Shown here one piece after another: positions 16,742-39,143 of a DNA stretch of 64,000 bases. Numbering within the stretch: the first letter of the stretch is position 1; each line of letters starts with the position of its first letter. A program made the translations under genes and the position numbers. This DNA is from Candidatus Cloacimonadales bacterium. GTDB taxonomy: Bacteria; Cloacimonadota; Cloacimonadia; Cloacimonadales; JAIOQZ01. The DNA is taken from positions 1,120,001 to 1,184,000 of the forward strand of contig CAXXTU010000002.1 in the NCBI GenBank assembly GCA_963662655.2. The letters are read 5' to 3'. The notes under the pieces were generated by a model. It was not told the origin of the DNA and did no database searches. It worked only from the letters and a program-made list of their open reading frames with translations.

Positions 16742-16852
16742 GAAGCCTCCCTGTATGTTAAGCATTCGTGCATTGAATATTCCAATCTTAATAAAAAAGC
16801 GAACCGGTGTCAACCGATTCGCTTAAATATTTCAACGGGTCCCGAAAGAGGA

Positions 16853-17341
16853 TCAATATTCTTCTTTGTGATGGAACTCCGCATCCTCCACCCATTGATT
16901 GGGGCGGCTTACATGCTCGATGATGTTCTCCAGAATCCGGCGATGTTTTTCCTCTTCGGCGATAATCTTTCTTATAAGGGCTTTCTCGTCTTCGTTCTCC
17001 ATATCTGCCAGCGCTTTGACATAGAGATCGATCGAGTTCTCTTCCATTTCCAGCGCCTGGTTGTACAGATTGAGCTGATCCTGCCCACAATCGATCTCGA
17101 CATTCTCTTTCCGCATTTTCGCGAAGATATTATCCGCCTCCGTCAGCACGGTAGTCGAGGCCATCGTGCCCGGATTGGACTGCTGTATCGACATAAAAAC
17201 TCTGCGGTGCTTGCTCTCATCGTCGGCAAGCATGTTCAGGATATAGCTCATCCCGCTGCCTTGCTCACAGTTGTTCGAGAGCATACGATAGAAAATCTCA
17301 CCGTCTTTCTCCATCTGGATCGCAAAATCGAGACTTTGCAT
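16853..17341 (-). CDS. Ferritin-like/rubrerythrin family protein
   Basis: Duplicated A..ME...Y / ExxH diiron pattern (DESKH, EEKH). Confidence 0.88.
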   Translation of the reverse strand: MQSLDFAIQMEKDGEIFYRMLSNNCEQGSGMSYILNMLADDESKHRRVFMSIQQSNPGTMASTTVLTEADNIFAKMRKENVEIDCGQDQLNLYNQALEMEENSIDLYVKALADMENEDEKALIRKIIAEEEKHRRILENIIEHVSRPNQWVEDAEFHHKEEY

Positions 17342-17361: not shown

Positions 17362-20300
17362 CTATTTTAGTATCGCTCCTGTCTGGCCTTCCAGTGAGAG
17401 CGTAACCTTGCCGCCGTCGACCTTGTATGTCTTACCGGTCATGAGGTCGGTTAGTTGAGCGCTTTTCACGGGGACATCCACGGTGATGTTACGAGGTGAG
17501 GTCTCGTTGTTGATTACTACGACGATTTCCTCGCCCTTGTACTCGCGCAGGAAGGAGTAGATTTTCTCCTTGGCTAGAAGCGTGTGGAAGTCACCCTTGG
17601 TGAGGGCCTTGTTTTCCTTACGAATCTTGATAAGCTTCTTGTAGTACTCGCGAAGCGCAACGCGATCTTGATTTTCCGTGTAGTTCCATTCGAACGGTCT
17701 GCGGCAATCCGGATCGTGCGCGCCCATCATTCCGATCTCGTCTCCGTACCATATATGCGGAGCGCCGACGTAGGTCATCTGGAAGAATGCGGCCATCTTG
17801 AGCTTGTTCACGTCGCCGCCGGCTGTCTCGAGATAGCGGTGCGTGTCGTGGCTGTCGATGAGATTCATCATCGCCTGGGTGGATTGGGTCGGATAGGTTA
17901 GCAATCCGGGCTTGAGATCGCGATCGAATGTCTTCGCGCTGCAGTTGCGCTGGTTGAAGAAGCGCTGCACCGGATCCTTGAAATAGGCATAGTTCATCAC
18001 GGCGTCGAAGTAGTCGTTGTTAACCCAGTCAACAGCGTTGCTCCAGATTTCACCAACGAGGTATGCGTCCGGTTTGACCTCTTTCACGCGTTCGCGGAAG
18101 AGTCTCCAGAACCAGAAAGGAACCTCGTTGGGGACATCAAGACGGAATCCGTCGAAACCGACATCGCCGATCCAGTAATCGACGAGGCCGAGAATGTAGT
18201 CCACCACCGGCTTGTTCGGCTGCGCCTGCGTGATATCCTTCACCGAATTCTCCGATGCGCTTGGGCGACTCTTGTCGTAATCGAGGTCGGGCATTTCGCC
18301 GAATCCCCACCAGCACTCGTAGTAATCGGCAGGCTTGTAGTTGCTTTCGGGAAGCGGCCATTTTTTCCACTCGTACCATTCGTAGTACTCGGAAGCGGGA
18401 CCATTCTTCTTACCGTCCTGGAATGCCCAGAACGTATCGCCCGTATGGTTGAACGCGACATCGAGGATCACGTGGATTCCCAGATCGTGCGCGTCTTTGA
18501 TGAAATCTTTGAGCTGCTGCTCGGTACCGAAGTGCGGGTCCATCTTCATGTAATCGGCTGCGTCGTACTTGTGATTTGAACGAGCCTGGAAGATCGGATT
18601 GAAGTAAATAATGGTGATGCCGAGATCGTGCAGGTAATCCAGCTTCTGGTGGATGCCGACGATATCTCCTCCGTAGAATGCCCACCAGTCCGGCTTTCCT
18701 TCCGGATGATACGGATTGCTGGTGAGCGGAGCGACGTCGTACCAGTCCTCGATCAAGCGATAATATACCTGATCCTTTTTCAGCTTCTTGCCTTTGGGCG
18801 GAGGGGTACGCATTCCGTCGTAATACCACTCGGAAAAGTCGGGATCGTTGTACTTGCTTCCATTGTAGAAACGTTCCGGGAATATCTGATAGATCACGCC
18901 CTCTTTAACCCAATTCGGGGTGATGAAGGGTTCCAAACCTGCTACCGGGTAGTGGAACAGCTTCGCATTGTTCAGGGTCTCGGCGATCTCGCCTTCGAGA
19001 AGGTAGAACTTCTTCGGACCATCGTGATAGACAAAGCAGTAATCGAAGGCTTCATCCGGATTCTTCAGTTCGACGAAAATCCGGTAGTATTCAAAGCTTC
19101 CATCTTCGGAAACGAGCTTCATCGGGAGTTCCTTACCGTCTTTCCAGAAGGTCACGTTCTCCACGTCGCCAAGGTGAGCCTTCGTCTTGAACTCAACGGT
19201 TTTTTCCGAGAGCGGATTCACCGTTTCGATCGACTGATCGGTCGAGATGCCGTAGGTGAGCATCTGGCCGTCGGCGACTTCCAGCGTGACCATCGGGAAG
19301 GTCTCGTCCACGAGCACCACAGAATTCTTTCCGCCGAAACCGTCATCGGCAAAGCGCTGCGCATTGGAATCGTGCAGCCATTCGATGCCGTCGACCACGA
19401 ACTTGTAATGGTATTCGTCCGGCTTGAGCAGCATGACGATCTCGAAGGTTCCGTCGCCGTTGTCGAGCATCCTGTCTTCTTTCTGGTTCCAGGCGTTGAA
19501 TGAGCCGGCGAGGTAGACTTCCTTGACCGGTTTGCCCGGAGTGTAGCGGAATTTCACCTTGCGAAGCGCATTCAGTTCCTTGGGATCGCCGGCGTAAACG
19601 ACAGAGTTCTGTCCGCCGTAACCGTCTCCGACGAACTCTTCCGCGCTCTCGTCCGCAAGCCAGTTGTCGTCCACAACAAACTTGTAGGCGTACTTGCCGG
19701 GCTGGAGATCGATGGTCGTGGAATACTCGCCACTCACTTCCTTCATTTTGTTCGCGGTTGGCGACCAGTTATTGAAATCGCCGGCCACATAGATATCATG
19801 CTTACCACCGATAAGAGGCTGGTAGGTGAATGTGACGGGTATAGCGCCCTGCGGAGATTTTTCCTGCGTCTTCGTTGCCACTTTCTTCACTCCTGTATCT
19901 TTACCCTCTCCGACAACCAGCACCGAATTCTGGCCGCCATAGCCATCGTCCATAACGTTGGAGTTGTTGGGATCGGGTTTCCAATCGGAACCGTTTACTA
20001 CGAATTTATACTGATATTCGCCCGGTGTCAAATCCAAAGTTACCGACCAGGTATCTCCGTCTTGCATCATCGGGGTTGCGGCCATGTCCCAGTTGTTGAA
20101 ATCGCCGGCAATGTTCACGGATGACGCGCCGGCGTCCGAATAAGTAACAACGGTTCCTTTACCTGAAACCGGTTTCTTTGCCGGGGCTTTTTTCTCAGCT
20201 TTCTTCGCTTCGCCTCCGACATTAACCACGGAATTCTTTCCGCCGTAGCCGTCGTCTGCCGTGTTGGGATTGTCGGGATCGGCAACCCAGTCAGAGCCGT

Positions 20301-21234
20301 TGACAACGAACTTGTACATGTATTCGCCCGGTGCCAAATCCAAAGTTACCGACCAGGTATCTCCGTCTTGCATCATCGGGGTTGCGGACATATCCCAGTT
20401 GTTGAAATCACCCGCGATATTCATGGATGACGCACCGGGATTATCATAGGTGAAGGTCACGTTTCCGGCTTGCGCGGTTTTCTTGGGGGCCTTCTTGGGA
20501 GCTGGTTTCTCCACTTTCTTCGCTTCACCACCGACGTTAACCACGGAATTCTGTCCGCCGTAGCCATCGTCTGCCGTGTTGGGATTGTCGGGATCGGCAA
20601 CCCAGTCGGAGCCGTTAACCACAAACTTGTACATGTATTCGCCCGGTGCGAGGTCCATGGAGATCGTCCAGGTGTTTCCGTCCTTCTCCATCGGTGTCGC
20701 GGCCATGTCCCAGTTATTGAAATCACCCGCGACATTCACAGATGACGCGCCTGGTTTATTGTATGTGAAGGTCACGTTTCCGGCTTGCGCGGCTTTCTTG
20801 GGGGCCTTCTTTGGGGCTTCCTTCACAACCTTGGACGCTTCGCCGCCGGTAACGGTCAGAACGGAGTTCGCTCCGCCGTAGCCGTCGTCTGCCGTGTTGG
20901 GATTGTCGGGATCGGCAACCCAGTCCGCGCCGTTGATAACGAACTTGTACATGTATTCGCCAGGTTTAAGATCCAGCGCGACCTGCCAGGTGTTCCCCAC
21001 CTTCTCCATAGGCGTCGCGGAGGAATTCCAGTCGTTGAAATCCCCTGCTACATGCACGCTGTTCGCGCTTGAATTCTTGTATGTTACAAGGACCCCAGAA
21101 GCCGGGATTTCCGGTCCGGAAGCCTTTTCCGCCTTCTGCTGTGTCTTTCCGTCAAAATCACCGAAGCCGAGTGTGGTACATCCGGCCAGAATGATCAGGA
21201 CCAAACAGCACAATGCTATGATTATACGTTTCAT
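17362..21234 (-). CDS. Lipoprotein GH13 alpha-glucan hydrolase (neopullulanase/cyclomaltodextrinase-like) with six N-terminal CBM48-like repeats
   Basis: Lipobox LAGC; six AG(D/S)FNxW...YKFV...DG(Y/F)GGxNS domains; IYQIFPERF, LDVAFNH, GFRLDVPNE, VGEIW and NLIDSHD, so the catalytic triad is present. Confidence 0.92.
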   Translation of the reverse strand: MKRIIIALCCLVLIILAGCTTLGFGDFDGKTQQKAEKASGPEIPASGVLVTYKNSSANSVHVAGDFNDWNSSATPMEKVGNTWQVALDLKPGEYMYKFVINGADWVADPDNPNTADDGYGGANSVLTVTGGEASKVVKEAPKKAPKKAAQAGNVTFTYNKPGASSVNVAGDFNNWDMAATPMEKDGNTWTISMDLAPGEYMYKFVVNGSDWVADPDNPNTADDGYGGQNSVVNVGGEAKKVEKPAPKKAPKKTAQAGNVTFTYDNPGASSMNIAGDFNNWDMSATPMMQDGDTWSVTLDLAPGEYMYKFVVNGSDWVADPDNPNTADDGYGGKNSVVNVGGEAKKAEKKAPAKKPVSGKGTVVTYSDAGASSVNIAGDFNNWDMAATPMMQDGDTWSVTLDLTPGEYQYKFVVNGSDWKPDPNNSNVMDDGYGGQNSVLVVGEGKDTGVKKVATKTQEKSPQGAIPVTFTYQPLIGGKHDIYVAGDFNNWSPTANKMKEVSGEYSTTIDLQPGKYAYKFVVDDNWLADESAEEFVGDGYGGQNSVVYAGDPKELNALRKVKFRYTPGKPVKEVYLAGSFNAWNQKEDRMLDNGDGTFEIVMLLKPDEYHYKFVVDGIEWLHDSNAQRFADDGFGGKNSVVLVDETFPMVTLEVADGQMLTYGISTDQSIETVNPLSEKTVEFKTKAHLGDVENVTFWKDGKELPMKLVSEDGSFEYYRIFVELKNPDEAFDYCFVYHDGPKKFYLLEGEIAETLNNAKLFHYPVAGLEPFITPNWVKEGVIYQIFPERFYNGSKYNDPDFSEWYYDGMRTPPPKGKKLKKDQVYYRLIEDWYDVAPLTSNPYHPEGKPDWWAFYGGDIVGIHQKLDYLHDLGITIIYFNPIFQARSNHKYDAADYMKMDPHFGTEQQLKDFIKDAHDLGIHVILDVAFNHTGDTFWAFQDGKKNGPASEYYEWYEWKKWPLPESNYKPADYYECWWGFGEMPDLDYDKSRPSASENSVKDITQAQPNKPVVDYILGLVDYWIGDVGFDGFRLDVPNEVPFWFWRLFRERVKEVKPDAYLVGEIWSNAVDWVNNDYFDAVMNYAYFKDPVQRFFNQRNCSAKTFDRDLKPGLLTYPTQSTQAMMNLIDSHDTHRYLETAGGDVNKLKMAAFFQMTYVGAPHIWYGDEIGMMGAHDPDCRRPFEWNYTENQDRVALREYYKKLIKIRKENKALTKGDFHTLLAKEKIYSFLREYKGEEIVVVINNETSPRNITVDVPVKSAQLTDLMTGKTYKVDGGKVTLSLEGQTGAILK

Positions 21235-21259
21235 GCGTAACTCCTGTATTCTCGATTAT

Positions 21260-22219
21260 TTAATTTGCCAGCATCGCTTCGATGACTGTCGTGAAGCTTC
21301 CTGCCGAATCCCACTGCGGGATCGAATCGTTGGCGAAATACTGATCGCCGCCGCCGCCGATGAGGGCAACAAGGCCGATCGATTGGCCGGCCGGAGCGTT
21401 TTCAGCGCCGTAGATTTGCTCGAAAGGAATCGCGATCTCGATGCAGCTTGCGGTCATGGCGACCTCAATCTCGAGCGGATTTGTGTCGATCGCGGCAGGA
21501 TCGGAGAAGCTCGCGCAGAACGCGTCGGCTAGCGCCCAATTACAGATGCCGATATCAGCGCCGAAGAAATCAGGTGCCGTAACGGTTTTGCGCAGACGAT
21601 TACCCGGGTCTCCCCCACTGAGCGTAGAGAAGTCATTCACACCGGTCTCGTCACCGAAGTCGGTATCGATGTAGAAGTTCACAGTGTTGTCCGAGGACGA
21701 GAATTGTCCGGTCACGCAGATAAACAAATGCGTAGCGTTCTGTGCCATGTAGAAGCAGTTGAAATCGTTCGGACCCCAGTCGGAGGCGTTGTTGTTGATG
21801 TAGAACGGCTCTCCCCAATCGGTCGAATCCGCATCGACGGTGATTTCTCTGAATTCCATAGGCTCGGAATACTCGAAGACAACCGTGCTGGTTGTTTCAG
21901 TTTTATTAGGCTCCAGCGCTATCGTGAGGCTCTTGCTTCCATAGCTTTCGGAGAAGAAATAAATCGAATACTCTCCCGCCGAGAGACCGTCAAGATGCCA
22001 GTAACCATCTGAATCGGTCGTGGTTTGAGCAGCTTTGATCATCTCGCCGTCGGAATTGAGATAGAGCTCCACGGTCGCCGACAGCGTATCGGTTGAAGCC
22101 TCCTCGAACTCGACATAGCCTTCCACGGAGGCGTTGTGGTAGAAGGGGCTGTCGGTGGGTGAATCTTCACATGCGATAAAAATCAGCATGATGGCGATAA
22201 TGCTTGTTATCCATTTCAT
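21260..22219 (-). CDS. Lipoprotein with Ig-like and DOMON/CBM9-like domains
   Basis: Lipobox FIAC; TTTDSDGYWHLDGLSAGEY; ITVDADSTDW...FYIDTD...IEIAIPF. Confidence 0.65.
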   Translation of the reverse strand: MKWITSIIAIMLIFIACEDSPTDSPFYHNASVEGYVEFEEASTDTLSATVELYLNSDGEMIKAAQTTTDSDGYWHLDGLSAGEYSIYFFSESYGSKSLTIALEPNKTETTSTVVFEYSEPMEFREITVDADSTDWGEPFYINNNASDWGPNDFNCFYMAQNATHLFICVTGQFSSSDNTVNFYIDTDFGDETGVNDFSTLSGGDPGNRLRKTVTAPDFFGADIGICNWALADAFCASFSDPAAIDTNPLEIEVAMTASCIEIAIPFEQIYGAENAPAGQSIGLVALIGGGGDQYFANDSIPQWDSAGSFTTVIEAMLAN

Positions 22220-22236
22220 ATATCGTACCTCGTATT

Positions 22237-22653
22237 CTATTCGATCGTCAGCACGGAATTCTTTCCGCCGTAACCATCGTCCGTATAGTCGAGCGCGTTG
22301 GGGTCCGTGAACCAGGAGTTGCGATCGACAACATATTTGTAGGTGTATCGTCCGGGAGGCAGATCCTTGACCAGTGTCCAGATTCCGTCGTCCGCTTCCA
22401 GGTCGCCATGCGTACCGTCGTCATACATCTTATCGATATTGGGGTCGTACTGCGCGCTCGTCGACGCGGTTCCTCCCCAGAGGTTGTCCGGGAAGTCTCC
22501 TGCCAGCGTCACCAGCCGAGCAGATGGCGCTTCGTACTGGAACACCACCCCTTTTTTCGACTTGTACGGGGGCGGAAGTCTCTTCTTGATGAAGTTGAGC
22601 TCGCAACCCGCAAGTAGCATCAGAGCCACGGCAATCACAATATATCTCTTCAT
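22237..22653 (-). CDS. Small CBM48-like (glycogen-binding) lipoprotein
   Basis: Lipobox LAGC; LAGDF, PGRYTYKYVVD...DDGYGGKNS; MYDDGTHGD...DDGIWT insert. Confidence 0.8.
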   Translation of the reverse strand: MKRYIVIAVALMLLAGCELNFIKKRLPPPYKSKKGVVFQYEAPSARLVTLAGDFPDNLWGGTASTSAQYDPNIDKMYDDGTHGDLEADDGIWTLVKDLPPGRYTYKYVVDRNSWFTDPNALDYTDDGYGGKNSVLTIE

Positions 22654-22668
22654 GATTCGCGCTCCTTG

Positions 22669-24738
22669 TTAGAATTTCAGCGTCGCTTCGAGCATGAAGC
22701 GTTTCTCGTCTTTCAGCGCTTCTTCCGCAGTGCGGATTTTCTCGCCGGTTCCGAGATACGCGTTCTCGGTGTATTCTTCATAATCGGCGGCTTCGCTCAG
22801 GTACTCGTCACGTCCACCGTAGTAGAACTCGTCCGTCACGTTGTTGAGCGTTCTCGGATTAACACCCCAGCCGAAGGAGAGTCGCACGTCGTCGGAGAGC
22901 TGGTATGCCAGCTCGGAGTAGTTGCTGACGAACACATCCTCGTCGTTACCGAAATCGGTCTCGAGACCCTGATATGGATCGTTGTAATACGGAATACGCG
23001 TGCTCGACCAGATCATCCACTCTTTGTTCAGATGGATTCCCACCGCAATCACGTTCTCGATATATTTGGCTTCCTTCATGAATCCCTGGTGCGCAAAGGT
23101 AGCGTCCCAGTCGATATCGACCGGGAAGTATACCTTGAACTTGTATCCCACCGAGAGATTCCAGGTAAGGGCTTCCTCGTATCCGAGTATGGTATAACGA
23201 TCGAATGGAACGTCCGAGTAGCGCTGGAACCAGCGACCGTTGCCGTCCGTCTTTTCCATGTACTTGTAGTAGTTGTTCCAGTCGACCAGCGAATCCGGGA
23301 ACTCGTAGGTCCAGTACTTCATCCCGATGCTCGCGGTGAAATCTCCCGCCTCGAAGTCGGCGTTCAGGCCGATGCGGTTGCGGGTGATTTCCTCGGTTGT
23401 CGTCTCGGGATTCGGGGTCAGTCCGTTCGGGTTCGCACCCGTCTCAAGGATGTACTCGATCTTGTTGGTTTGCAGATTCGCGTTCAACTTCAGAGCCGCC
23501 GGGAAATTCACTCGGAGGCCCAACCACGCGGAGTTGCCTTCCATCCAGGTGAATTCCTCTTCCGTGATGTATTCGTAGCCTTCTTCGCCGTAACGCTTGT
23601 GGTTGTTGCGGTTCTCGAAGCTGTAGTATTCCGCGTCGAGCGCCAGAAGCATCGGATTTTGCCAGCCGATTCCCATCATGTTGTGCTCGTAGGTCATATC
23701 GAAGGCATAGCTGTCGTGCTTCTGGAGGAGCTCATCCGATGCCGAGACTCTCACGCCGTACAGGGTTCCACCCAGGCGAAGGGTTTTCTGATTGCCCTCG
23801 CGCTCGGAGAAAAGCCAGCTCGTGGTAAGCCTTCCGGCTCCGGTGTCGGTTTCGGAATCGGTCGCGTCGTCGGAGTACAAGCCTTCGAAAGCCACCCGTA
23901 TTGGGGTTCCTGCAAGCAGGTCATTGAAGAACTGATCCGCCGTGTCCAGGTATACACCGCGCTGGTCGTAACCGAACGCGTAGTTGTACCTTCCGATGTC
24001 GCCCACGATGTGCATGGGATCGTCGAAAGTGATAAAGCCGTATTTATCGAACGCGGTAAGCTTGAAGTACTCAGTTTTGAGCTTCAGGTACGTTCTTTTA
24101 TATACGAGATGCGTACGCCACATGTCGCTGCCTTCATCGGTGTTGTTGATGCTCATCATCGTGAAGCCTTCGAAGTACTGATTGAACCGGACTTTGATAC
24201 CGAGATTGATATTGTGTTCCGGTTTATCGAGCATGTAGCGCGATTCTTCTTCGTCTTTACTGAAGATGTATTTGGTATAATAACGGCCCGTAAAATAGAC
24301 CTTGGGATTAATCATGCTGGCGATGCCTTCGCGCTCGGTTTTCTCCTCGGCGACGAGCTTGCCTTTGCCGTCGATCTCCACCAGCGAATTGGATCCGCCG
24401 TAGCCGTCATCCATCAGGTTGCTGTGGTCGGGATCGAAGAACCAGTTGCCGTCCACCACAAACTTGTATTGGTGTTTCCCGGGCGGCAACAGCACGGTCG
24501 TTGTCCACATGCCGTCACTGTCTTTTTGCATCGGTGTCGCACTCGAGTTCCATTCGTTGAACGAACCCGCTACGGAAACCGACTGGGCGTCGGGGGCATC
24601 GTAGGTGAACGCAACGCCATCCGAGACCACTTTGACCGCTGCGCCGAGCCACACTATCGGCAGGCTCAGAAGCACAAGCAAGATCAGTTTGTACATTCGT
24701 GTTGTATTACAAAGCCGACGTATTAAAGGCGCTTTCAT
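22669..24738 (-). CDS. Predicted outer-membrane beta-barrel protein with N-terminal CBM48-like domain
   Basis: AGGAG SD before ATG 24738 (alternative start 24696); signal peptide; VAGSFNEWN...YKFVVDG...DDGYGGSNS; then amphipathic aromatic-rich strands ending LEATLKF. Confidence 0.7.
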   Translation of the reverse strand: MKAPLIRRLCNTTRMYKLILLVLLSLPIVWLGAAVKVVSDGVAFTYDAPDAQSVSVAGSFNEWNSSATPMQKDSDGMWTTTVLLPPGKHQYKFVVDGNWFFDPDHSNLMDDGYGGSNSLVEIDGKGKLVAEEKTEREGIASMINPKVYFTGRYYTKYIFSKDEEESRYMLDKPEHNINLGIKVRFNQYFEGFTMMSINNTDEGSDMWRTHLVYKRTYLKLKTEYFKLTAFDKYGFITFDDPMHIVGDIGRYNYAFGYDQRGVYLDTADQFFNDLLAGTPIRVAFEGLYSDDATDSETDTGAGRLTTSWLFSEREGNQKTLRLGGTLYGVRVSASDELLQKHDSYAFDMTYEHNMMGIGWQNPMLLALDAEYYSFENRNNHKRYGEEGYEYITEEEFTWMEGNSAWLGLRVNFPAALKLNANLQTNKIEYILETGANPNGLTPNPETTTEEITRNRIGLNADFEAGDFTASIGMKYWTYEFPDSLVDWNNYYKYMEKTDGNGRWFQRYSDVPFDRYTILGYEEALTWNLSVGYKFKVYFPVDIDWDATFAHQGFMKEAKYIENVIAVGIHLNKEWMIWSSTRIPYYNDPYQGLETDFGNDEDVFVSNYSELAYQLSDDVRLSFGWGVNPRTLNNVTDEFYYGGRDEYLSEAADYEEYTENAYLGTGEKIRTAEEALKDEKRFMLEATLKF

Positions 24739-24821
24739 TCTATCTCCTGTTCCATCGATTTTCATGAACGATTGATTGCGTTGCAGGCGTGTACCCTGCG
24801 TCTTGTTATCTAACGTTTTCA

Positions 24822-26330
24822 TCAGAACCACCCCTTGAGGATCAGCTTAACTTCCTTCTCCATATCGCCACCGGAAGAAAATCCATCGTCGTTGACAAGC
24901 CCGTACTGTCCCCACCAACTCGGTCCGTATTGCAGGTAGAGCTCGGTGTTGCCGCTGAGCCTGTACTGGATCTCTCCAAAGATGCTGTGACGCGATCCTT
25001 CTTCATCGTTAGCGATCATACCGCGCATGAAGAATTTCCATTCGTCGGTAAGGTTGACGCTGACCTCTACGCCGGTAAGCTGTACCTCCGAGTCCTCGCC
25101 CATGTCCTTGATCTTGAACTGCGTAAGCAGCTTGGCCAGGCGATTCTCAACGGAAAGCTCCGCAAAGAAGTCGTAGTGTTTGTACTTCGTGTTGTTGTAG
25201 TCTTCGTCTTTTTTATTGTAGTATATCTTGCCCTTGAAGCCCTTCACGAATTCGATGTACATCTCCGTGTAGAGATTCGTGGTGGGGTTGTAGACTTCCT
25301 TCTTCTGGGTGTCGAACGTTCCGTCGGGAGCGATCCTGGTAACATAAACCGTATCGGGGACATGGTTCTGCCATGCCGAGTAGTTCACCGTAAGCGTTAT
25401 GGCGCGGTTGGGAACCAGGTATTTGGTGTCCAGCCAGTAGCCGTATTCGTTGTACTTGTTCTCTCCCATATAATTCCGGTAGGTGTCGCCGTACGACCAT
25501 CCACCGGGTTTCAACAAGATGTAGCCTAATTTTGCCGTTCCGACGCGGATACCCATGAATTCCCCTTTCAACGCGATGTTGGATTTCAGGATATCTTCGT
25601 CTTCGTATTCATCGTTACGTTGCTGGATGTCTTCTTCAGCGGGGACATCGCTCCAGGCGAATTCCGTGTTGAGGTAGTACCGTCCCATGCCGGCGTGGAA
25701 ATCCACTGCCGCCACTTCGTTGTACTCCTTCTCCTGTCCCGTGGAGTAATTCTTACGCTGATAGAACACGCCGAAACGGAGCCGTTCCGAGAGATTCTGG
25801 CGATACCGCATCAGGTGAACGTCGTCGCCCTCGCCGGACGAGAAATCGCTCACAACGTACGTAAAGCTTCCGCCGAACGGATACCAGAGATCCCAGCGAG
25901 CGCCCTGTCCGTTGCCGTCGTTGTTCACCGAGCCGGTATTCACGATTCCCAGCATGGAGCCGTCCGTCCAGTAGTGGCCGCTTTCACGGGTGAAAAGGAC
26001 GCCCTGTCCTCCCCATCCGCTTCTTTCGTAGCGATACTGAACATGGCCCTCGCCGAATATCGATTCCGTGTTACCGGTGTTCTTGTAAGAATCCTGTCCC
26101 TTGTCGTTATCCGCGTAAATTTTGAAGAATACTTCCGCGTTCTTCAGAGGGCTGGAGAAGAAGCGCGTCTCGATGTAGTAGTTCGGGTCCCACATGTTCC
26201 ACTTGTATTCCTCGGAATCGTAGGTTCTGCCGAACTGTCCTTCGAGGTAACCCTCCATCTTGATGGGGCCAGCCTTCAGAAGCGCAGCAAAAAGCAAAAT
26301 CAGGATCAATGCGATGGTATGTTTTTTCAT
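24822..26330 (-). CDS. Predicted outer-membrane beta-barrel protein, unknown family
   Basis: Signal peptide, alternating aromatic/polar strands, C-terminal LILKGWF. Confidence 0.65.
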   Translation of the reverse strand: MKKHTIALILILLFAALLKAGPIKMEGYLEGQFGRTYDSEEYKWNMWDPNYYIETRFFSSPLKNAEVFFKIYADNDKGQDSYKNTGNTESIFGEGHVQYRYERSGWGGQGVLFTRESGHYWTDGSMLGIVNTGSVNNDGNGQGARWDLWYPFGGSFTYVVSDFSSGEGDDVHLMRYRQNLSERLRFGVFYQRKNYSTGQEKEYNEVAAVDFHAGMGRYYLNTEFAWSDVPAEEDIQQRNDEYEDEDILKSNIALKGEFMGIRVGTAKLGYILLKPGGWSYGDTYRNYMGENKYNEYGYWLDTKYLVPNRAITLTVNYSAWQNHVPDTVYVTRIAPDGTFDTQKKEVYNPTTNLYTEMYIEFVKGFKGKIYYNKKDEDYNNTKYKHYDFFAELSVENRLAKLLTQFKIKDMGEDSEVQLTGVEVSVNLTDEWKFFMRGMIANDEEGSRHSIFGEIQYRLSGNTELYLQYGPSWWGQYGLVNDDGFSSGGDMEKEVKLILKGWF

Positions 26331-26341
26331 CTACGTAATCC

Positions 26342-27241
26342 TTATATTTCAAAGTCGTCCATTGCGAACCGAACCCCGAAGGTCAAGCGGTATGTGCTAC
26401 CCAGTTCGTCGTGCTGAAAAACAGCAGCGTCAAGTGTCCACCAGCTCGATTTCAATCCGAAACCGGCGGTGAGGTTCTCTCCACTCAAACCGATGCGCGG
26501 CGCGAATACGTCGTAAAACCACATCTCGCAACCGAGGTTCAACTGGCTATCGCTGCCTTCCCATTTATAATCCGCCAGGAAGTTAACGATACCTCTCCAA
26601 CTGTAACACGCTCCCGCCACATATTGACGATCGAGCTTGTCGCCTTCCTCCACCAGCTTGAACTCGGGCTGGAAGATATTGCGCGTCACAAAACTGATCG
26701 TGAGCGGCTTCATCGGCTGAACCTGCATCCCGAGGTCCATGTCGAAATTACCGACTTCATCCGCGTCCGAGTAGCCCGGAACGCTTACGCGCATGTATTT
26801 CAGCGTCGCACCAAACCGTAGCGGCACATTCCTGAGCCACACGATCGATGCGCCACCCAGCGATAAGACATCCTCGTAGTACTCGCCTTCCAGGCCGACC
26901 TGCGTCCAGGCGAAACCGGTGCGGATGTACGGAAACGGCATCGAGAACGCGATCATTTCGCTGTTCAAGCCGGAGATTCCGTACAGATTCTGGTGCGACA
27001 TCGAGAAGGAGTATTTCTCCACACGAGTCAATCCGGCCGGATTCCAGAAGAGCGCGGTGGGATCGTCGCTGAGCGCGGTGTAGGCGTTTCCGAGAGCGTA
27101 CGCACGCGCACCGTGATTCATACCCTTGAAATCGGCGTGAGCCAATGCAGGTAGGAGAATCAGGATGGTCAGCGTAAGCAGTTGGATGGTAACGGTCACT
27201 TTTTTCCGGGATTTCCCGGAATCAATCAATGTTTCTTTCAT
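26342..27241 (-). CDS. PorV/PorP-like (FadL-fold) outer-membrane barrel
   Basis: GARAYALGNAYTALSDDPTALFWNPAGL N-terminal motif; LRFGATLK, DLG and LG.TYR strands. Confidence 0.75.
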   Translation of the reverse strand: MKETLIDSGKSRKKVTVTIQLLTLTILILLPALAHADFKGMNHGARAYALGNAYTALSDDPTALFWNPAGLTRVEKYSFSMSHQNLYGISGLNSEMIAFSMPFPYIRTGFAWTQVGLEGEYYEDVLSLGGASIVWLRNVPLRFGATLKYMRVSVPGYSDADEVGNFDMDLGMQVQPMKPLTISFVTRNIFQPEFKLVEEGDKLDRQYVAGACYSWRGIVNFLADYKWEGSDSQLNLGCEMWFYDVFAPRIGLSGENLTAGFGLKSSWWTLDAAVFQHDELGSTYRLTFGVRFAMDDFEI

Positions 27242-27282
27242 AAAAAAAACAAACCTTATCTCTTTGTATTAACGGTCATTGG

Positions 27283-28392
27283 TCACTTGATCAATACGAC
27301 CGCCTCCTTGTGACTGACTTCTTTGGAATCGGCGATGAATCGTAGGATGTACACGCCGAAATTCACCAAATTCCCATCTTGATCCCGTCCGGTCCATTCC
27401 CACTCGAGATTGCCGGTCGATGCAGCCGTCCCGACCTTTTTGCCGTCGAGGTTGAATATCTCGACACTGAAGATCGAACCGCGATTGGTTTCGAGCGAGA
27501 AGGTCAGCTTTTCGCCACGCGTCGGCGCGAAAACCTTACCGTCGTCGAAGATAACGCGTTCCACCTTCAGGGATTGGGCTTCGAACGGCGGACGCTTGAA
27601 GAACGAAGTGTGGTAGTTGGGAAGAACGCCCATATCCGGTTCTCCGTCACCGTTCTGGTCAATCGGGACTTCCACATAGTTGTCCAGGACAACGGTTTCC
27701 GTCTGATCGGGCATTCCGCTGAGGTTGTCTGGCGCTGAGTCCGGCCCTGCGGTATGGTCGCCGCCGCCGGTGATCACAGCCAGAAACTTGATCGTAGGGT
27801 AGTTCAGCATCGAGCGTTCATCGCTGTAATAGATGCCGGCCCAGGGGATTTTCGCCTCCAGGGCGCGATCGCTCGAACCGGTGTTGAACGTGGCGAAGTC
27901 CTCGTATCCGAGGTATCCGTCGCCCCATTCGTCGGCGGTGTCCGAAAGACCTTCGCGTACTTCCCAGAACTGCGGATTGTTGTTGGTATCCCAGGTCGCC
28001 AGGAAGAAATCAGGATAGACGTTGTAAAAACGGAATTCGCGGTTCCAGGTGTTCAGCTCTTCCATGTCGTCGATGCCGTAGTCGTCGTACACATCGATGA
28101 ACAGGATCACATTGTTGTCCCAGCTCGTGGCGTCAACCGCAACGTAGAGGTAGGTTTGGTCCCAGGTCACGCGAATCTGACGGATATCGTTGTTCTCGCC
28201 CCAGCGGGAGTCGTTGGGATATTCCAGCGGAATGCCAGTGGAATCGCTGAGAACGTATTCGTCCGTCGTGAAATCGCTGCTGTAACCGTCGATGATGATT
28301 CGTCCGGAGAGATCAGCGGCGGTAACAGCGGATAGAGTAATTGCAATGACAAGAACTGTCAGGGTAATAAACCACTTCATAGATTTGTCCAT
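27283..28392 (-). CDS. Secreted DOMON/CBM9-like protein with variant FlgD-Ig/T9SS-like CTD
   Basis: Signal peptide (start 28392 or 28380); IIIDG...VTWDQTYLYVAV; VFAP...VEIFNLDGKKV...WTGRDQDG...GVYIL...VLIK. Confidence 0.65.
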   Translation of the reverse strand: MDKSMKWFITLTVLVIAITLSAVTAADLSGRIIIDGYSSDFTTDEYVLSDSTGIPLEYPNDSRWGENNDIRQIRVTWDQTYLYVAVDATSWDNNVILFIDVYDDYGIDDMEELNTWNREFRFYNVYPDFFLATWDTNNNPQFWEVREGLSDTADEWGDGYLGYEDFATFNTGSSDRALEAKIPWAGIYYSDERSMLNYPTIKFLAVITGGGDHTAGPDSAPDNLSGMPDQTETVVLDNYVEVPIDQNGDGEPDMGVLPNYHTSFFKRPPFEAQSLKVERVIFDDGKVFAPTRGEKLTFSLETNRGSIFSVEIFNLDGKKVGTAASTGNLEWEWTGRDQDGNLVNFGVYILRFIADSKEVSHKEAVVLIK

Positions 28393-28400
28393 TTTAAAGA

Positions 28401-28430
28401 GGAAAGGGGAACCGCAACCAGCGATTCCCC
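28401..28430 (-). terminator. Stem-loop (terminator or mRNA stabiliser) inside the locus
   Basis: Minus strand GGGGAATCGC-tggtt-GCGGTTCCCC-TTT. Confidence 0.6.
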
Positions 28431-28439
28431 AAACCGGAA

Positions 28440-29822
28440 TTATTTGATCAGTATTATTTTGCCTGAAGACGTGATGATACCGCGTTTCAATTTCATCAGA
28501 TAGACGCCGGAGGTAACGTTTCTGCCGTTATCGTCGGTTCCGTCCCACACGATCTTGTTCTCGCCGACAGGTTGAATGTCGTTGATCAGCGTACGGACTT
28601 TCTGGCCGCGCACGTTGTAGATTGCGAGCTCGACCTTTTGCTCTTTATCGAGCGTGAACGCGATGGTTGTTTCCGGATTGAACGGGTTCGGGTAGTTGTA
28701 AAGGTTCGCATCACTGTACTCGGGAACCGTTTCGTCCACGAAATCGTTGGTCATTTGGCCGTACTGGACGTCAACAGTCTGCGTAGCGCTTGCGTCGTCA
28801 ATGGTGATAACATGGTTGGTGAAAGCGGGTGCTTCCACGTCCATGCTGTTGCGAGCAAACTTGAACTCAATCGCTTTCCAGGAACCTGCCGGGAAGAGAA
28901 CGTCGATCGACCAGACGTTGTCGCCCTGATCGGTAAGAGGGTTGTTGTTCGCGGTGAATTCCCAATCGAGCGGTGAAACGCTGCCGCAGATTGCAAGCGT
29001 GGTGAAATCGACACCCGCATTAACCGAGTCCGCAACGTCGCAGTTGAAGGTAACGGTTACGTCCTGGGTGGTGTAGTTGGCCGGATCGTCGTCGTTGAAA
29101 TATACGACATCGAGAACCATGGTGGCGTTGGTGTCGTCGATTTCGAGCGTACGGTTGCCAATCGCGTCTTCCCAGTTGCCGCCGTTGACGAACTTGTACT
29201 CGATCATCGGGGTGGTGCCTGCTACGAAAAGAACGTCGCCGGCGTAGATGTCGTCGCCCTGGTCGGTAAGAAGGTTCGTTCCGGCAGACCAGTTATTGAA
29301 GGAGCCAGCGACGGAGACGTCACCCTGGACGCCGACAAGGCTCAGATCGACCCTAAAGGTTACCGTAACGTCCTGCTGAAGGGGTGAACCGAAGGTGTAT
29401 TCGCCCGGGACATTGAGGTTGAATGGTCCTTCACCTGCCTGGTCTGTACCGTAAGAATAGGTCTCATCCGTTGCGTCATAGCCTTCGCAGAAGAAGTTGA
29501 TAACATCCCCCGTAGAGAAAGTTCCAGCCGCGATGGTTACGCTGTATTCGTCGTTGTTTCCGACTTCACCGAGATACGCCATGTCCACGGCCGTGTACTC
29601 GGTTGCGCTGGTGAGTTTGTAGTAGAAAGTCGCGGAAAGATCTGCGCCCTGGCCTTCACCCGGGGTCACGCCGTCTTTCCAGATTTGATAGTAAACGGTC
29701 AAGTCTTCTGTCGGGACATGGAATGTACCCGAATTCGGCCAGATGTTTCCGCTCCAGCCAATCTCTGCATTCAATACGAGTGCGCACGAAACAAGTATCA
29801 TTAAGATAGCGATTCGTCTCAT
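28440..29822 (-). CDS. Secreted protein with two CBM20/CBM48-like starch-binding domains and T9SS-type CTD; no catalytic domain recognised
   Basis: AGGAGG SD; signal peptide; two QDVTVTF..D...GS...W...LTDQGD...IE(Y/F)KF repeats; NYPNPFNPETT...ILIK. Confidence 0.75.
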   Translation of the reverse strand: MRRIAILMILVSCALVLNAEIGWSGNIWPNSGTFHVPTEDLTVYYQIWKDGVTPGEGQGADLSATFYYKLTSATEYTAVDMAYLGEVGNNDEYSVTIAAGTFSTGDVINFFCEGYDATDETYSYGTDQAGEGPFNLNVPGEYTFGSPLQQDVTVTFRVDLSLVGVQGDVSVAGSFNNWSAGTNLLTDQGDDIYAGDVLFVAGTTPMIEYKFVNGGNWEDAIGNRTLEIDDTNATMVLDVVYFNDDDPANYTTQDVTVTFNCDVADSVNAGVDFTTLAICGSVSPLDWEFTANNNPLTDQGDNVWSIDVLFPAGSWKAIEFKFARNSMDVEAPAFTNHVITIDDASATQTVDVQYGQMTNDFVDETVPEYSDANLYNYPNPFNPETTIAFTLDKEQKVELAIYNVRGQKVRTLINDIQPVGENKIVWDGTDDNGRNVTSGVYLMKLKRGIITSSGKIILIK

Positions 29823-29964
29823 GTTGAACCTCCTGTTTTTTATTTCTACTGTTTGTATCAATATTCATAGAAGAATGCATCAAGCCTTTCGATACGCTTT
29901 CAATGCCATCTTCTATAAAAAATACACGTTATAACTCTATCGTCAAGAATACTTTACTGGTTCT

Positions 29965-30801
29965 TCAACCTTTTACGCTTCCAAGCGTCAGGCCGGAAAC
30001 CAGCCACCGGCTCAGGAAGAGGAACAGCGCCACGACCGGAACGCTTATCAGCAGCGATCCCGCAGCGTACATGCCCCACTCTGTCGTCATGTTGCCTTGC
30101 AGACTCTTGAGCCCGAGCGGGATAGTGAACATCTCTTCGTACCAGAGCACCTGCGCGGCTACGATGTACTCATTCCAGGCAGCCATGAAGGAGAAGAGCG
30201 CGGTAATCACCAGCGCCGGAGCCGCCAGAGGTAGAATGATCTTCCAGAACGTGTAAAATCTCCCCGCGCCGTCAACCATCGCGGATTCCTCCAGGCTGAA
30301 CGGGATGGTATCGTAGTAACCCTTCATCAGCCAGATGCAGAACGGTAATGCAGTCGCGCTGTACATGATGATCAAGCCGAGGAAACTGTTGATCAATCCC
30401 AGCTTCGAAAGCATGATGAACAGCGGTAGAAGCAGCATCGTCGCCGGAAACATCTGCGTAATGAGCAGACTAAGGAGCCCCGCCTTACGACCGGGGAAGC
30501 GATATCGCGAAAAGGCGTATCCCGCAAGGGATGCGAAAGCGACGCCCACGATGGTAACCGTGATGGAGACCATCAGGCTGTTGCGAATCCACAGAAGGAA
30601 GGGCTTCTCCGTGAAGAGCCGCACGTAGTTGTCGAATGTCGCGTCTGCGGGAACGATCGCCAGCGAGCGATTGAGAAGGTTGTCGCCGGGACGAAGCGAG
30701 ATCGTGAAGATACGCAACACCGGATAGACCGATATGGCTACGAACAGCAGCACGATGGCGTAGATGATCGTTGTTGTCGTGATCTTTTTAAACTTGTTCA
30801 T
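29965..30801 (-). CDS. malG: Carbohydrate ABC permease (MalG-like)
   Basis: WIRNSL, AGYAFSRYRFPG and EAA loop IPFSLEESAMVDGA; GGAGG SD before ATG 30801. Confidence 0.88.
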   Translation of the reverse strand: MNKFKKITTTTIIYAIVLLFVAISVYPVLRIFTISLRPGDNLLNRSLAIVPADATFDNYVRLFTEKPFLLWIRNSLMVSITVTIVGVAFASLAGYAFSRYRFPGRKAGLLSLLITQMFPATMLLLPLFIMLSKLGLINSFLGLIIMYSATALPFCIWLMKGYYDTIPFSLEESAMVDGAGRFYTFWKIILPLAAPALVITALFSFMAAWNEYIVAAQVLWYEEMFTIPLGLKSLQGNMTTEWGMYAAGSLLISVPVVALFLFLSRWLVSGLTLGSVKG

Positions 30802-30812
30802 GCGTCCCTCCC

Positions 30813-33170
30813 CTATGCCTTTTCCGCAACCTGGCTGCGGTTCATGAACGTCAATCCGAAGAACGCGAGGAACAGGAAGATCAGCACGGAGAATGCCGCC
30901 GCGTACCCGTAGCGGTAAAGGTTGAACGCGGCCCGATAGACGTATGTCACCAGGATATGCGAGTGGTCCGCAGGTTGTCCGCCGTTGGTTACCAGCCAGA
31001 GCACGTTCAGGTTGTTGAAGGTCCACACCGTTCCGAGCGTGATCGCGGGAACCATCACCGGTTTCAGGAGCGGAACGGTCACGTTCCAGAATTGCTTCCA
31101 CGATGACGCGCCGTCGATTTTCGCCGCCTCATACAGCTCTTTGGGTATCGATTGCAGACCGCCCAGCGCGATGACCATCATGAAAGAGAATCCCAACCAG
31201 ATGTTGGTGATGATCGCGGCGATGAACGCCATCGTCGGCTCGGAGAGCCAGTTCACTCCGGCAATACCCAGATGATTGAGCATCAGGTTGATCGCTCCGG
31301 TATCGGAGATGAACATCCCGCGCCAGGTAAGCGCGACAATGTACTGCGGAACCGCCCACGGCAGGATCAGCAGCACCCGGAAGATCGGTTTGCCGGGAAG
31401 CTTCCTGTTCATCAACAGCGCAAGCATCACGCCGAGCGTAACGTGGAAGAACACGTTGACGATCGTCCAGATGAGCGTTTTGATGAATACCGCAACAAAT
31501 TTATGATGCGTAATAAAGTACTTTAGGTAATCCCACGTGACGAATCCGCCTTCGCTACCGATCGAGTTGCGGTAGTCCGCGAAGCTCATATCGAAGTCCC
31601 ACAGCACCTTCCCGTATTGCTCCACGCCGATGACTTCCCACGAATTCACGTTGGTCATGTTCATATTGGAAAACGAAAGGACGATGTTGTAGAAGAAGGG
31701 ATAGATCACCACGCCGAACATCACGATGGCTGCCGGTATGGAGATCAGGATTGCGAACCGCGCGTTACGGGCTTCCATCGTATATGGATTGCGAAGCAGC
31801 GCCAGGACGAATTTGAAGATCAGCAAGTACGTGAGATAAAGACCCAGCGCGATGCCGATGATGTAAATAATGTATTTCGTGATATGCTGGCTGCTCCCAG
31901 CTCCGGCGACCTCGTACATGTCGTTGATCTTCTCGATACACAGCTTCTGCTGGTAGGTTGCCCCCTCTTCCGGGGTCATATTCCCGCCCACAACGCTTTG
32001 CAGCGCCGGGCGCATGGCGTCCCAGGCAGCGCGCATCTCGGGGATGATCGGCATGAGCTGCCCCGCTTCGATCTGCGCGGCGGAAGTTTTCACTGTGGGG
32101 TCGTTTGCAAACTCGGGATCGTTGTACAGCGTTTTGATCGACGGGATCGACTTGAACTCGGTCGCGAAACGTTTCTGAACAGTCTCGGACGTCAGCCAGG
32201 TCAGAACCTTCTTCGTGGCTTCCATCACTTCGGGCTTGGTGTTGGAGTTGATCGAGTAGCCGGTGGCAGATACCATTGGGCTGCACCACAATCCCGATTC
32301 TTCCACGTAAGGGATCTTCGCAAGGCCGAAATCGACCTCCGGGGACCCCATGTATTTCTGCCACGACCAGTCGCCGTTGATGATCATACCGGCGTTACCC
32401 TGGTTGAACATGTTGTCCGCGATGTCGTAATCGCACTCGGGTGGCATAATCTTATAGACGTCGCGCATGTCCTTGATGAGCTTGAACGCCTTCGCCGCCG
32501 CAGGTGAATCGAGCTGAGGCTTGTTGTTCTCGTCGAAAACCCTACCGCCGTAACCACCGAAGAACGGAACATACCAGAAAGGTTCCGTGTAATTCCATAC
32601 GAGTCCCCACTGGTCGATCACGCCATCGCCGTCGACATCTTTCGTCAGCTTCTGGCCGTACTCGATGAGCTGCTCGATCGTCTCGGGAGGACCGGGTAGT
32701 CCCGCCTCGTCAAAAAGTCGTTTATTATAAGGCAAAGCGAGGTGGTTGCCGATGCGGTCGGCGATCTGATAGAGATGCCCTTTATAATGAATCAGGCCGT
32801 TGGCCGTGAATTTCTTGAAAAACTCTTCCGGGAAAACCTCTTCAAGGGGCATGATAATACTTCGGTCGCTGTTTTTCAGCTTCATCACCTCAAACGGTCC
32901 GATCTGGTCCATGGGACCATACACCAGTTCGGGACCGCCGCCGGTAAATGCCGCCGCCGCCTGATACCCCGTCCTGAGTTCTTCCACGTTCTTGGATAAT
33001 AGTATGACTTCGATATCGGGATTGTCCCTCATGAACTCGTCGACAACATCTTTGAGGAGCGGTCGCTTGTTCGGCTCCATCGTGTGCCAGAGATGGACTT
33101 TGTCTATCGAAACCAGAATTTGCGCTGTAACAAATAGAAATAATAACGTTAATGCTAATGTCTTTCTCAT
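30813..33170 (-). CDS. Fused sugar-binding protein (MalE-like) and MalF-like permease
   Basis: N-terminal ~420 aa SBP (YNKRLF, FNQGNAGMIINGDW, PIIPEMRAAW), then TM helices with LILPWAVP and IPKELYEAAKIDGA, all in one frame. Confidence 0.88.
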   Translation of the reverse strand: MRKTLALTLLFLFVTAQILVSIDKVHLWHTMEPNKRPLLKDVVDEFMRDNPDIEVILLSKNVEELRTGYQAAAAFTGGGPELVYGPMDQIGPFEVMKLKNSDRSIIMPLEEVFPEEFFKKFTANGLIHYKGHLYQIADRIGNHLALPYNKRLFDEAGLPGPPETIEQLIEYGQKLTKDVDGDGVIDQWGLVWNYTEPFWYVPFFGGYGGRVFDENNKPQLDSPAAAKAFKLIKDMRDVYKIMPPECDYDIADNMFNQGNAGMIINGDWSWQKYMGSPEVDFGLAKIPYVEESGLWCSPMVSATGYSINSNTKPEVMEATKKVLTWLTSETVQKRFATEFKSIPSIKTLYNDPEFANDPTVKTSAAQIEAGQLMPIIPEMRAAWDAMRPALQSVVGGNMTPEEGATYQQKLCIEKINDMYEVAGAGSSQHITKYIIYIIGIALGLYLTYLLIFKFVLALLRNPYTMEARNARFAILISIPAAIVMFGVVIYPFFYNIVLSFSNMNMTNVNSWEVIGVEQYGKVLWDFDMSFADYRNSIGSEGGFVTWDYLKYFITHHKFVAVFIKTLIWTIVNVFFHVTLGVMLALLMNRKLPGKPIFRVLLILPWAVPQYIVALTWRGMFISDTGAINLMLNHLGIAGVNWLSEPTMAFIAAIITNIWLGFSFMMVIALGGLQSIPKELYEAAKIDGASSWKQFWNVTVPLLKPVMVPAITLGTVWTFNNLNVLWLVTNGGQPADHSHILVTYVYRAAFNLYRYGYAAAFSVLIFLFLAFFGLTFMNRSQVAEKA

Positions 33171-38367: not shown

Positions 38368-39143
38368 CAATCGATCGGATAGGAAAGCATGGGGTGTCCA
38401 GTGGCGGGATTGCGAACTAGGGGTACTGTTATGCCGAAAACTTCGCGAAGGTTGCTTTCCGTGACAACATCCGCAGGAGAACCGTCCGCAACAAGTTTTC
38501 CTGCTTTCATCAGGAGAATGCGTGGGCAGTAACTGATGGCCAGGTTAATGTTGTGCGAGACAAGAATCACCAGCTTGCCTTCCTCGCGGTTGATCGTGCG
38601 GATCAGTTGCATAATCTCCAACTGGTGGTTGATATCCAGATGGGAGAAACTCTCGTCCATCAGAATGGCGTTCGTGTCCTGCGCCAGGGCTCTCGCGATG
38701 GATACGCGCTGCTGCTCACCACCGCTGAGCTGAGAAAACGGCTGCTTTCGCAGCCCGAGCAGATCGAGTTTCTCGAGGATGGAGTCAACCATCTCCCGAT
38801 CGGCTTTCGTGTAGTCCCGCCAGGTATCCAGGTATGGAAAACGTCCCATCATGACGACATCCTCCACGAGGTAGTCGAATTGCAGATGGAAGTCCTGCGG
38901 AATCAGGGCGAGCTCTCTTGAGAGTTCGTTGCGAGACATCGCGTGGGTGTCTTTACCGTGAAGATAGGCCTTCCCTGCGATGGGATGAATGTGCCGAATG
39001 AGCGTTTTGAGGAGAGTCGATTTGCCGCATCCGTTCGGCCCGATCAGGGCACAGAAGTCGTTTCCATCGAATCCGACGCTGAGCCTGTCGATAACATTTT
39101 TCTCTCCGTATCCTGATGTCAACTCTTCTATTTTCAAATACAT
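38367..39143 (-). CDS. Iron-chelate/cobalamin ABC ATPase
   Basis: GPNGCGKST, LSGGEQQR, ILMDE...HLD.NHQ and SH motifs. Confidence 0.9.
   Translation of the reverse strand: MYLKIEELTSGYGEKNVIDRLSVGFDGNDFCALIGPNGCGKSTLLKTLIRHIHPIAGKAYLHGKDTHAMSRNELSRELALIPQDFHLQFDYLVEDVVMMGRFPYLDTWRDYTKADREMVDSILEKLDLLGLRKQPFSQLSGGEQQRVSIARALAQDTNAILMDESFSHLDINHQLEIMQLIRTINREEGKLVILVSHNINLAISYCPRILLMKAGKLVADGSPADVVTESNLREVFGITVPLVRNPATGHPMLSYPID

Follow-up and report, generated by a model that had tools for sequence, protein, structure and literature searches.

The window analyzed here, a stretch of 64,000 nucleotides (C2:1120001-1184000, C2 being the contig) from the genome of a Candidatus Cloacimonadales bacterium (3.8 Mb, 98.95% complete), carries a block of ten genes that appears to encode an alpha-glucan uptake system built around two outer-membrane barrels, B1 and B2. 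Based on open reading frame (ORF) calls and a start check, the ten ORFs occupy window positions 17362-33170 and are all located on the minus strand (Table 1), which confirms the ten co-oriented genes reported by an initial annotation that was generated from the DNA letters.

Table 1. Genes of the block and one enzyme gene next to it, in window positions (aa, amino acids; ABC, ATP-binding cassette; CBM, carbohydrate-binding module; CTD, C-terminal domain; GH, glycoside hydrolase; SBP, solute-binding protein).
Feature	Position	Strand	Properties
SBP-MalF fusion	30813..33170	-	785 aa; SBP_bac_1 and BPD_transp_1 domains
MalG-like ABC permease	29965..30801	-	278 aa
Secreted CBM-like-repeat protein	28440..29822	-	Standard type A-like CTD; X25 above Pfam cut-off; accessory
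Cargo (core gene 1)	27283..28392	-	369 aa; conserved unclassified N-terminal domain, divergent type B-like CTD
PorV/PorQ/PorP-superfamily barrel (core gene 2)	26342..27241	-	
Barrel B1 (core gene 3)	24822..26330	-	502 aa; predicted 24 strands, no plug domain, C-terminal Phe
Barrel B2 (core gene 4)	22669..24696	-	675 aa; N-terminal CBM48 and predicted 22 strands, C-terminal Phe
Single-CBM48 lipoprotein (core gene 5)	22237..22653	-	138 aa
Ig lipoprotein	21260..22219	-	319 aa; prealbumin/Ig-like domain and cargo-core-homologous domain
GH13 lipoprotein	17362..21234	-	1290 aa; six CBM48 and neopullulanase/cyclomaltodextrinase-type GH13
Secreted GH57 enzyme	10120..13119	+	Carries a CTD; 4 kb past the block

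The block had further been described as devoid of a TonB-dependent transporter (TBDT), a SusD-like protein and LamB. A Pfam search of its ten proteins agreed with this description, returning no match to any of the three, and neither TonB_dep_Rec nor plug domains were found on them. The N-terminal CBM48 of B2 (AMPK1_CBM, 63 bits) is a feature absent from that description.

A synteny check showed the gene set to extend beyond its host, with a five-gene core recurring in 105 partly redundant B1 loci (25 from genomes and 80 from metagenomes, several with the same or close sequences). Considering only loci with enough flanking sequence, a PorV-like gene was found upstream of B1 in 76/76 loci and the cargo gene in 55/56, the single miss (L149) being recovered at a looser threshold. 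B2 is located downstream of B1 in 69 of 72 loci, with two misses (L147 and L148) again recovered at looser thresholds and one (L049) representing a true break. The small CBM48 lipoprotein is encoded near B1 in 49/50 loci, GH13 in 28/32, and MalG in 28/34. Based on the near-invariant order around B1, the cargo, the PorV/PorP-like barrel, B1, the CBM48-B2 fusion, and the small CBM48 lipoprotein constitute the core of the cassette. This order is kept in high-GC loci at 26-31% identity. L049 was also considered as a second cassette type without CBM48; this candidate was rejected, since the ORF in question is a DUF3160 gene.

B1 was detected in 25 of 201 sampled Cloacimonadota genomes (22/151 of high quality), and these 25 also carry the B2 barrel, while the largest Cloacimonadota family sampled (88 genomes) yielded neither. 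The closest B1 relatives (75-83% identity) are labelled Candidatus Cloacimonadales; other named relatives are labelled Krumholzibacteriota and Eisenbacteria, and one locus belongs to bacterium TMED198. Within the phylum of the latter, a strong B1 match was obtained in 1/251 genomes, namely TMED198 itself, next to 14 weak matches (E 1e-7 to 6e-4), of which one was inspected and found to be a different, 1037-aa protein. Weak B1 relatives are furthermore labelled Elusimicrobiota and Lindowbacteria. Loci L058-L068, from the phylum of genome G201, hold a family of ~1038 aa with a barrel-like C-terminal half and a weak match to the B1 profile (E ~1e-7).

Around this core, the secreted CBM-repeat gene (missing from many loci), the Ig lipoprotein, and the number of CBM48 modules on the GH13 protein vary, and marine loci host a CBM lipoprotein of ~230 aa in place of the Ig lipoprotein. 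The module fused to B2 is a CBM48 but, in L149, a CBM20. Accessory neighbors in related loci comprise GH77, phosphorylase, MalK, GH57 amylase/branching enzyme, amylo-1,6-glucosidase, and X25/CBM20 proteins, and on the basis of these genes we assign the substrate class as alpha-glucan. In marine loci, a secreted protein of ~1134 aa (L079:17075-20479 and orthologs) with a weak GH57 match, X25 repeats, and a dockerin-like end is encoded downstream of GH13.

Neither B1 nor the barrel part of B2 belongs to a Pfam or NCBIfam family. The AlphaFold2 model of B1 is all-beta (pLDDT 93.2, pTM 0.85), with 24 membrane strands counted on its DSSP string and no plug domain; the model of B2, calculated from an alignment of 82 rows including one unrelated sequence (the DUF3160 ORF of L049), comprises the CBM48 followed by 22 strands by the same count (pLDDT 89.4, pTM 0.80). 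Closure of the barrels is suggested by end-to-end alignments with closed barrels. The matches listed by Foldseek are generic barrels only, with TM scores of at most 0.56 (B1) and 0.40 (B2), and maltoporin aligns with part of B1 (Z 12.9, 279 residues). Searches of both barrels for LamB (PF02264) and for SprA (TIGR04189) gave no match, the SprA matches being located elsewhere in the genome. [quoted passage not shown] Judged by profile alignment, B1 and B2 are paralogs (HHalign 96.3%, E 1.7e-9, 397 columns with the deeper alignments; 39.8% with the first ones). Lumen-side residues of B1 are conserved above lipid-side ones (0.56 vs. 0.39), with many acidic residues among them. Inter-protein covariation, calculated for 10 pairs at an effective depth of 30-47, gave top scores no higher than background, the alignments being shallow.

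The cargo carries a divergent CTD without PNP motif. Within the genome, custom hidden Markov models identified 196 CTD proteins and seven PorV-like genes; the motif is present in 188 of the former, and the cargo is one of the eight without it. Three of these eight are encoded directly before a PorV-like gene, compared with one of the 188, and 5/7 PorV-like genes follow a CTD-type gene, with one such CTD-like end judged by eye. The window cargo scores 15.2 bits against CHU_C, the Pfam model of type B CTDs (cut-off 27), which is matched weakly by 10 of 21 orthologs; the orthologs in L145 and L149 pass the cut-off and also bear glucodextranase C-terminal binding domains. The PorV-family barrel of the window scores closer to PorV/PorQ than to PorP and lies below all cut-offs, and 16/24 of the shuttle orthologs, the window protein not among them, match TIGR03519 (PorP/SprF) weakly. 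According to the accessible text of PMC12618676, type B cargo proteins of Bacteroidota depend on a cognate PorP/SprF shuttle, the gene of which directly follows their own, and according to that of PMC9143113 they remain attached to the shuttle on the cell surface. Based on the divergent-CTD adjacency, the CHU_C orthologs, and this precedent, the two genes are read as a shuttle pair: by analogy, the PorV-like barrel is likely the dedicated shuttle or anchor of the cargo and the cargo likely a surface binder. As the family scores stay below the cut-offs, the pair is described as working like type B/PorP-SprF pairs and not as a member of them. CTD-secreted surface binders had been proposed as part of the system; CTD proteins are indeed present, yet the pairing of cargo and PorV-like barrel mirrors the known pairs of Bacteroidota.

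A "DOMON-like" label of the cargo and of the C-terminal part of the Ig lipoprotein was not confirmed, with no match in Pfam and PDB sequence searches for either and no alignment to the one Glucodextran_C protein used. The two domains are mutually homologous (HHalign 96.1%, E 3.6e-9). Of the two CBMs assigned to the secreted CBM-repeat protein, one passes the Pfam cut-off (X25, 28.9 bits) and the second repeat remains below it.

Further genes of this kind were observed on contig C2. The 196 CTD ORFs, SprA, and the seven PorV-like genes point to heavy T9SS-like secretion. A further cargo-shuttle pair is located at C2:1854777-1859558 (-), where a TonB gene is followed by a 1011-aa divergent-CTD protein and a PorV-like gene, and a secreted protein of 7014 aa with a type B-like CTD end (C2:3169815-3190859, -) is adjoined by a 563-aa unassigned protein in place of a recognizable PorV/PorP gene. 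Secreted CBM-repeat proteins are also encoded at C2:963267-966707 (+), 1624382-1625737 (-), and 1370478-1374107 (+), two of them being paralogs of the CBM-repeat protein of the block; although encoded elsewhere than the locus, all three likely bind or process alpha-glucan as well.

The GH13 domain is nearest to Thermoactinomyces alpha-amylase II/neopullulanase (E 3e-114) and retains the catalytic Asp/Glu/Asp motifs in the alignment. Behind its lipidated Cys, the small CBM48 lipoprotein carries a conserved stretch that is strongly basic and rich in proline, and it is a candidate plug in trans. Acidic residues directly follow the Cys of the Ig lipoprotein in most orthologs, and the GH13 lipoprotein lacks them. 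In Bacteroidetes, an acidic motif directs lipoproteins to the surface, as stated in the accessible part of PMC5080379. If a similar rule holds in these phyla, the motifs not being identical, a surface location would be likelier for the Ig lipoprotein than a periplasmic one, and the residues after the Cys suggest a periplasmic location of the GH13 and small CBM48 lipoproteins.

At the inner membrane, the SBP-MalF fusion is best matched by the NCBIfam models of MalF/MalE and the permease by MalG, all below equivalog cut-offs. Such a fusion is the usual form in Cloacimonadota and in marine loci, with separate genes in high-GC loci. No ABC ATPase is encoded within the block; a MalK ortholog at C2:2931243 shares 62% identity with the MalK inside a related locus.

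Established outer-membrane systems were searched in the 26 carrier genomes, with positive controls for LamB and SusD in E. coli and B. thetaiotaomicron. LamB (PF02264) was found in 0/26 and SusD (PF07980) in 1/26, on a contig that holds no part of its cassette, with none in the genome studied here. SprA_N is present in 26/26 carriers, including a 2056-aa SprA frame in our genome, so that B1 and B2 are not stand-ins for a missing translocon. The sole Pfam-detectable TonB-dependent receptor of the genome (PF00593; 36196-38370) is encoded 3 kb upstream of the block; related loci lack it, which places it outside the conserved cassette. None was found among 41 of the 55 unassigned ORFs of at least 400 aa in related loci. 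Together with the following ABC ATPase-like gene, the receptor forms a unit (36196-39143, -) that by eye resembles B12/iron uptake.

Taken together, the block is real and conserved and represents an outer-membrane module for the uptake of alpha-glucans that has apparently not been described before, with channel and gating roles assigned by inference. We consider it probable, at roughly 60%, that the locus imports alpha-glucan fragments down a gradient through two paralogous wide barrels gated by CBM48 modules. A more specific version is tentative, in which barrels of 24 and 22 strands, forming a heteromeric pair with CBM48 plugs in cis and in trans, operate together with a T9SS-tethered binder and a TonB-free pull by a periplasmic amylase in Cloacimonadota, Eisenbacteria, Krumholzibacteriota, and marine lineages. 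The initial annotation had called the system a third architecture for alpha-glucan uptake. A syntenic locus without SusC, SusD, and LamB and with unmatched barrels sustains this view in part, while the shuttle pair is not new in kind.

In the proposed mechanism, CTD proteins would exit through SprA, the gene of which is observed, and the divergent-CTD cargo would stay surface-bound on its own PorV/PorP-like barrel beside the channel, by analogy with SusD/E/F. Secreted GH57/CBM proteins and the lipoprotein with the acidic N-terminus would bind and cut starch or glycogen outside the cell. The resulting maltodextrins may then pass B1/B2 and be caught at or within the inner mouth by CBM48 modules. 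An occluding domain is required in barrels of 22-26 or more strands, as in ushers, LptD, and TBDTs. Here, narrowing of the pore and its specificity would come from CBM48, with one module fused to B2 and one provided as a separate lipoprotein; B1 has no CBM48 of its own, and the basic arm of the co-travelling lipoprotein would complement its acidic lumen side. In the periplasm, the presumed location of the multi-CBM48 GH13 lipoprotein, this member of a recognized enzyme family would shorten the maltodextrins, which would keep the gradient and make TonB dispensable. Finally, the MalE-F fusion, MalG, and the distal MalK, all of observed families, would import the products as expected from MalEFGK, and GH77 and phosphorylase, adjacent in many relatives, would use them.

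Several observations weigh against this interpretation. Genome G068 has its cassette on two separate contigs (L049 and L152), with B1 interrupted and followed by the DUF3160 gene, which may reflect rearrangement, decay, or an assembly error, and in L100 the core is found with both GH13 and MalG missing from the surrounding 10 kb. The N-terminal domain of the cargo has no library match, its sugar binding being assumed. B2 shows no contrast in conservation between lumen and lipid side (0.53 vs. 0.53), and for both barrels the sides were assigned from the alternation of residues along DSSP strands and not from coordinates. TonB (TonB_C) is present in 26/26 carriers, and consequently independence from TonB is not arguable from absence. 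Furthermore, B2 resembles a TonB-dependent transporter in strand number and N-terminal-domain layout, and the folds nearest to B1 are pilus ushers, i.e., protein-secretion pores.

The occurrence of TonB in all carriers and the B2 layout of 22 strands after an N-terminal globular domain would also fit a non-canonical TonB-energized transporter formed by B2, with or without B1, in which CBM48 takes the place of the plug, i.e., Sus-like energetics with unrelated lids. TBDT barrels (FhuA, FoxA) align first-to-last over the whole B2 barrel (Z 9.7-10.8; for FhuA, Z 9.7 over 383 residues with a root-mean-square deviation (rmsd) of 4.8). However, they are outscored by 16-stranded porins, which match part of the barrel (Z 15.5), and no Pfam match to TBDT or plug was obtained. 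By fold, the N-terminal domain corresponds to CBM48 structures (Z 13.3) and not to the plug, and it directly follows the signal peptide, leaving no extension readable as a TonB box. B1, moreover, has 24 strands and no N-terminal domain. We regard such a transporter as unlikely.

We give little credence to a second explanation, in which the barrels serve as a protein-display scaffold or export pore for the cargo, the shuttle, or the surface lipoproteins, with sugars entering through general porins. It could account for the best structural matches of B1, the 24-stranded ushers FimD (Z 17.3, rmsd 5.8, 365 aligned residues, 9% identity) and PapC (Z 17.0), which are followed by MtrB, SusC-type, and Occ barrels, and for the PorV-like gene before B1, the association of which is tighter than that of any sugar gene; in Bacteroidota, PorV binds the SprA barrel (accessible text of PMC12618676). 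On the other hand, the usher likeness is found at 9-10% identity and an rmsd of 5.8-6.4, and none of 77 B1 members matches the usher Pfam family. A full-length SprA is encoded in the genome and SprA_N in every carrier, the other cargo/shuttle pairs of the genome have no such barrels alongside, and a glycogen-binding module is fused to B2.

Export or remodeling of a capsular or periplasmic alpha-glucan through pores of the AlgE/PelB type is highly improbable. An inner-side CBM48 would fit an exporter as well, related loci encode GH57 branching enzyme, GH77, and phosphorylase, and AlgE is among the fold matches of B1 (Z 14.4), but the linked ABC system has the solute-binding protein of an importer, hydrolases dominate, and no glycosyltransferase was found among the same 41 of 55 unassigned ORFs of at least 400 aa, shorter ORFs being outside the scan. 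Least probable of all is that B1 and B2 are distant members of the known large-porin group (Deinococcus SlpA/OmpM-type, DUF6029, Treponema Msp), acting as porins of a MalEFGK system with extra binders; a weak B1 profile match to Deinococcus SlpA over ~100 residues (E 0.01) and language-model neighbors among DUF6029 (0.95, 0.94) and Msp (0.93), none of them a full-length match, are set against the lack, in all 77 B1 members, of a match at E 0.01 to DUF6029, to Msp, or to any porin family and a partial alignment of B1 with OmpM1 (Z 13.8, rmsd 9.4).

Returning to import through CBM48-gated barrels, the locus shares with Bacteroides SusCDEFG the combination of surface glycan binders, an outer-membrane barrel, starch-binding lipoproteins, and a neopullulanase-type GH13, the type that fulfils the SusA-like role in Sus, i.e., lipoproteins binding one glycan substrate are encoded together with glycoside hydrolases acting on it. 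It differs in having neither a plugged SusC-type TBDT nor SusD, their place being taken by two paralogous barrels with CBM48, and in presenting its surface binder via CTD and PorV/PorP-like barrel, with ABC import at the inner membrane. Homologs of MalE, MalF, MalG, and MalK, a periplasmic amylase-like enzyme, and, in related loci, GH77 and phosphorylase are common to LamB plus MalEFGK (with MalM/MalS, MalQ, and MalP). In contrast to the latter, LamB is missing, MalE is fused to MalF, and T9SS-type surface parts are present; LamB has 18 strands, while the barrels described here are predicted to have 24 and 22 and maltoporin aligns only in part.

Type B CTD cargo pairs with PorP/SprF (SprB-SprF; PG1035-PorP-PorE) likewise have a divergent-CTD cargo gene directly upstream of a PorV/PorP-superfamily gene, whereas the pair investigated here is found outside Bacteroidota, as a fixed part of an operon that also contains the genes of two large barrels and of sugar import. 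Among plugged wide barrels (LptD/LptE, FimD/PapC, MtrAB, SprA/Plug), B1 shares the strand number of FimD/PapC, yet no sequence relation exists (6-10% identity) and the candidate plugs are carbohydrate-binding modules. Unlike a fimbrial usher, B1 consists of the barrel only, without plug and periplasmic N- and C-terminal domains, and is surrounded by sugar genes instead of chaperone and pilin genes. Unlike in a TBDT, the N-terminal domain of B2 is a CBM48 by Pfam and by fold, not a plug with TonB box. By its defining features, the locus is thus none of SusCD, LamB, TBDT, usher, or SprA, and it works like Sus and Mal combined in outline. A published description of the cassette was not found in the literature searched, supplements and most subscription journals being outside the search; the accessible parts of PMC8542988, bioRxiv 10.1101/2021.10.08.463351, PMC5317091, and PMC4454575 mention starch use and no such barrels.

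In respect to the surroundings of the block, the GH57 enzyme encoded on the opposite strand probably feeds the same pathway. A rubrerythrin-like gene (16853-17341, -) directly after GH13 and, past it, a beta-propeller CTD protein (13349-16342, -) are not retained with the cassette beyond the genus. Between the CBM-repeat gene and the cargo gene, a strong hairpin followed by a T-run (28406-28430, -) may split the ABC half from the outer-membrane core at the transcript level; a second one is located beyond the block at 16797-16824. An Rfam scan of the window detected two tRNAs only, none of them inside the block, and a promoter scan remained at chance level (12 vs. 13.3).

Current understanding of how glycans cross the outer membrane rests on two models, TonB-driven SusCD and diffusion via LamB-type porins. 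The loci reported here define two unclassified barrel families tied to starch and glycogen genes in anaerobic and marine lineages lacking SusCD and LamB, and they indicate use of the T9SS shuttle-cargo pairing outside Bacteroidota, inside a nutrient-uptake operon. If CBM48 indeed gates wide barrels, this would represent a new route to substrate specificity of a channel. In addition, the cassette provides marker genes by which alpha-glucan use can be recognized in uncultured phyla, a set that is missed by current annotation of carbohydrate-active enzymes and polysaccharide utilization loci.

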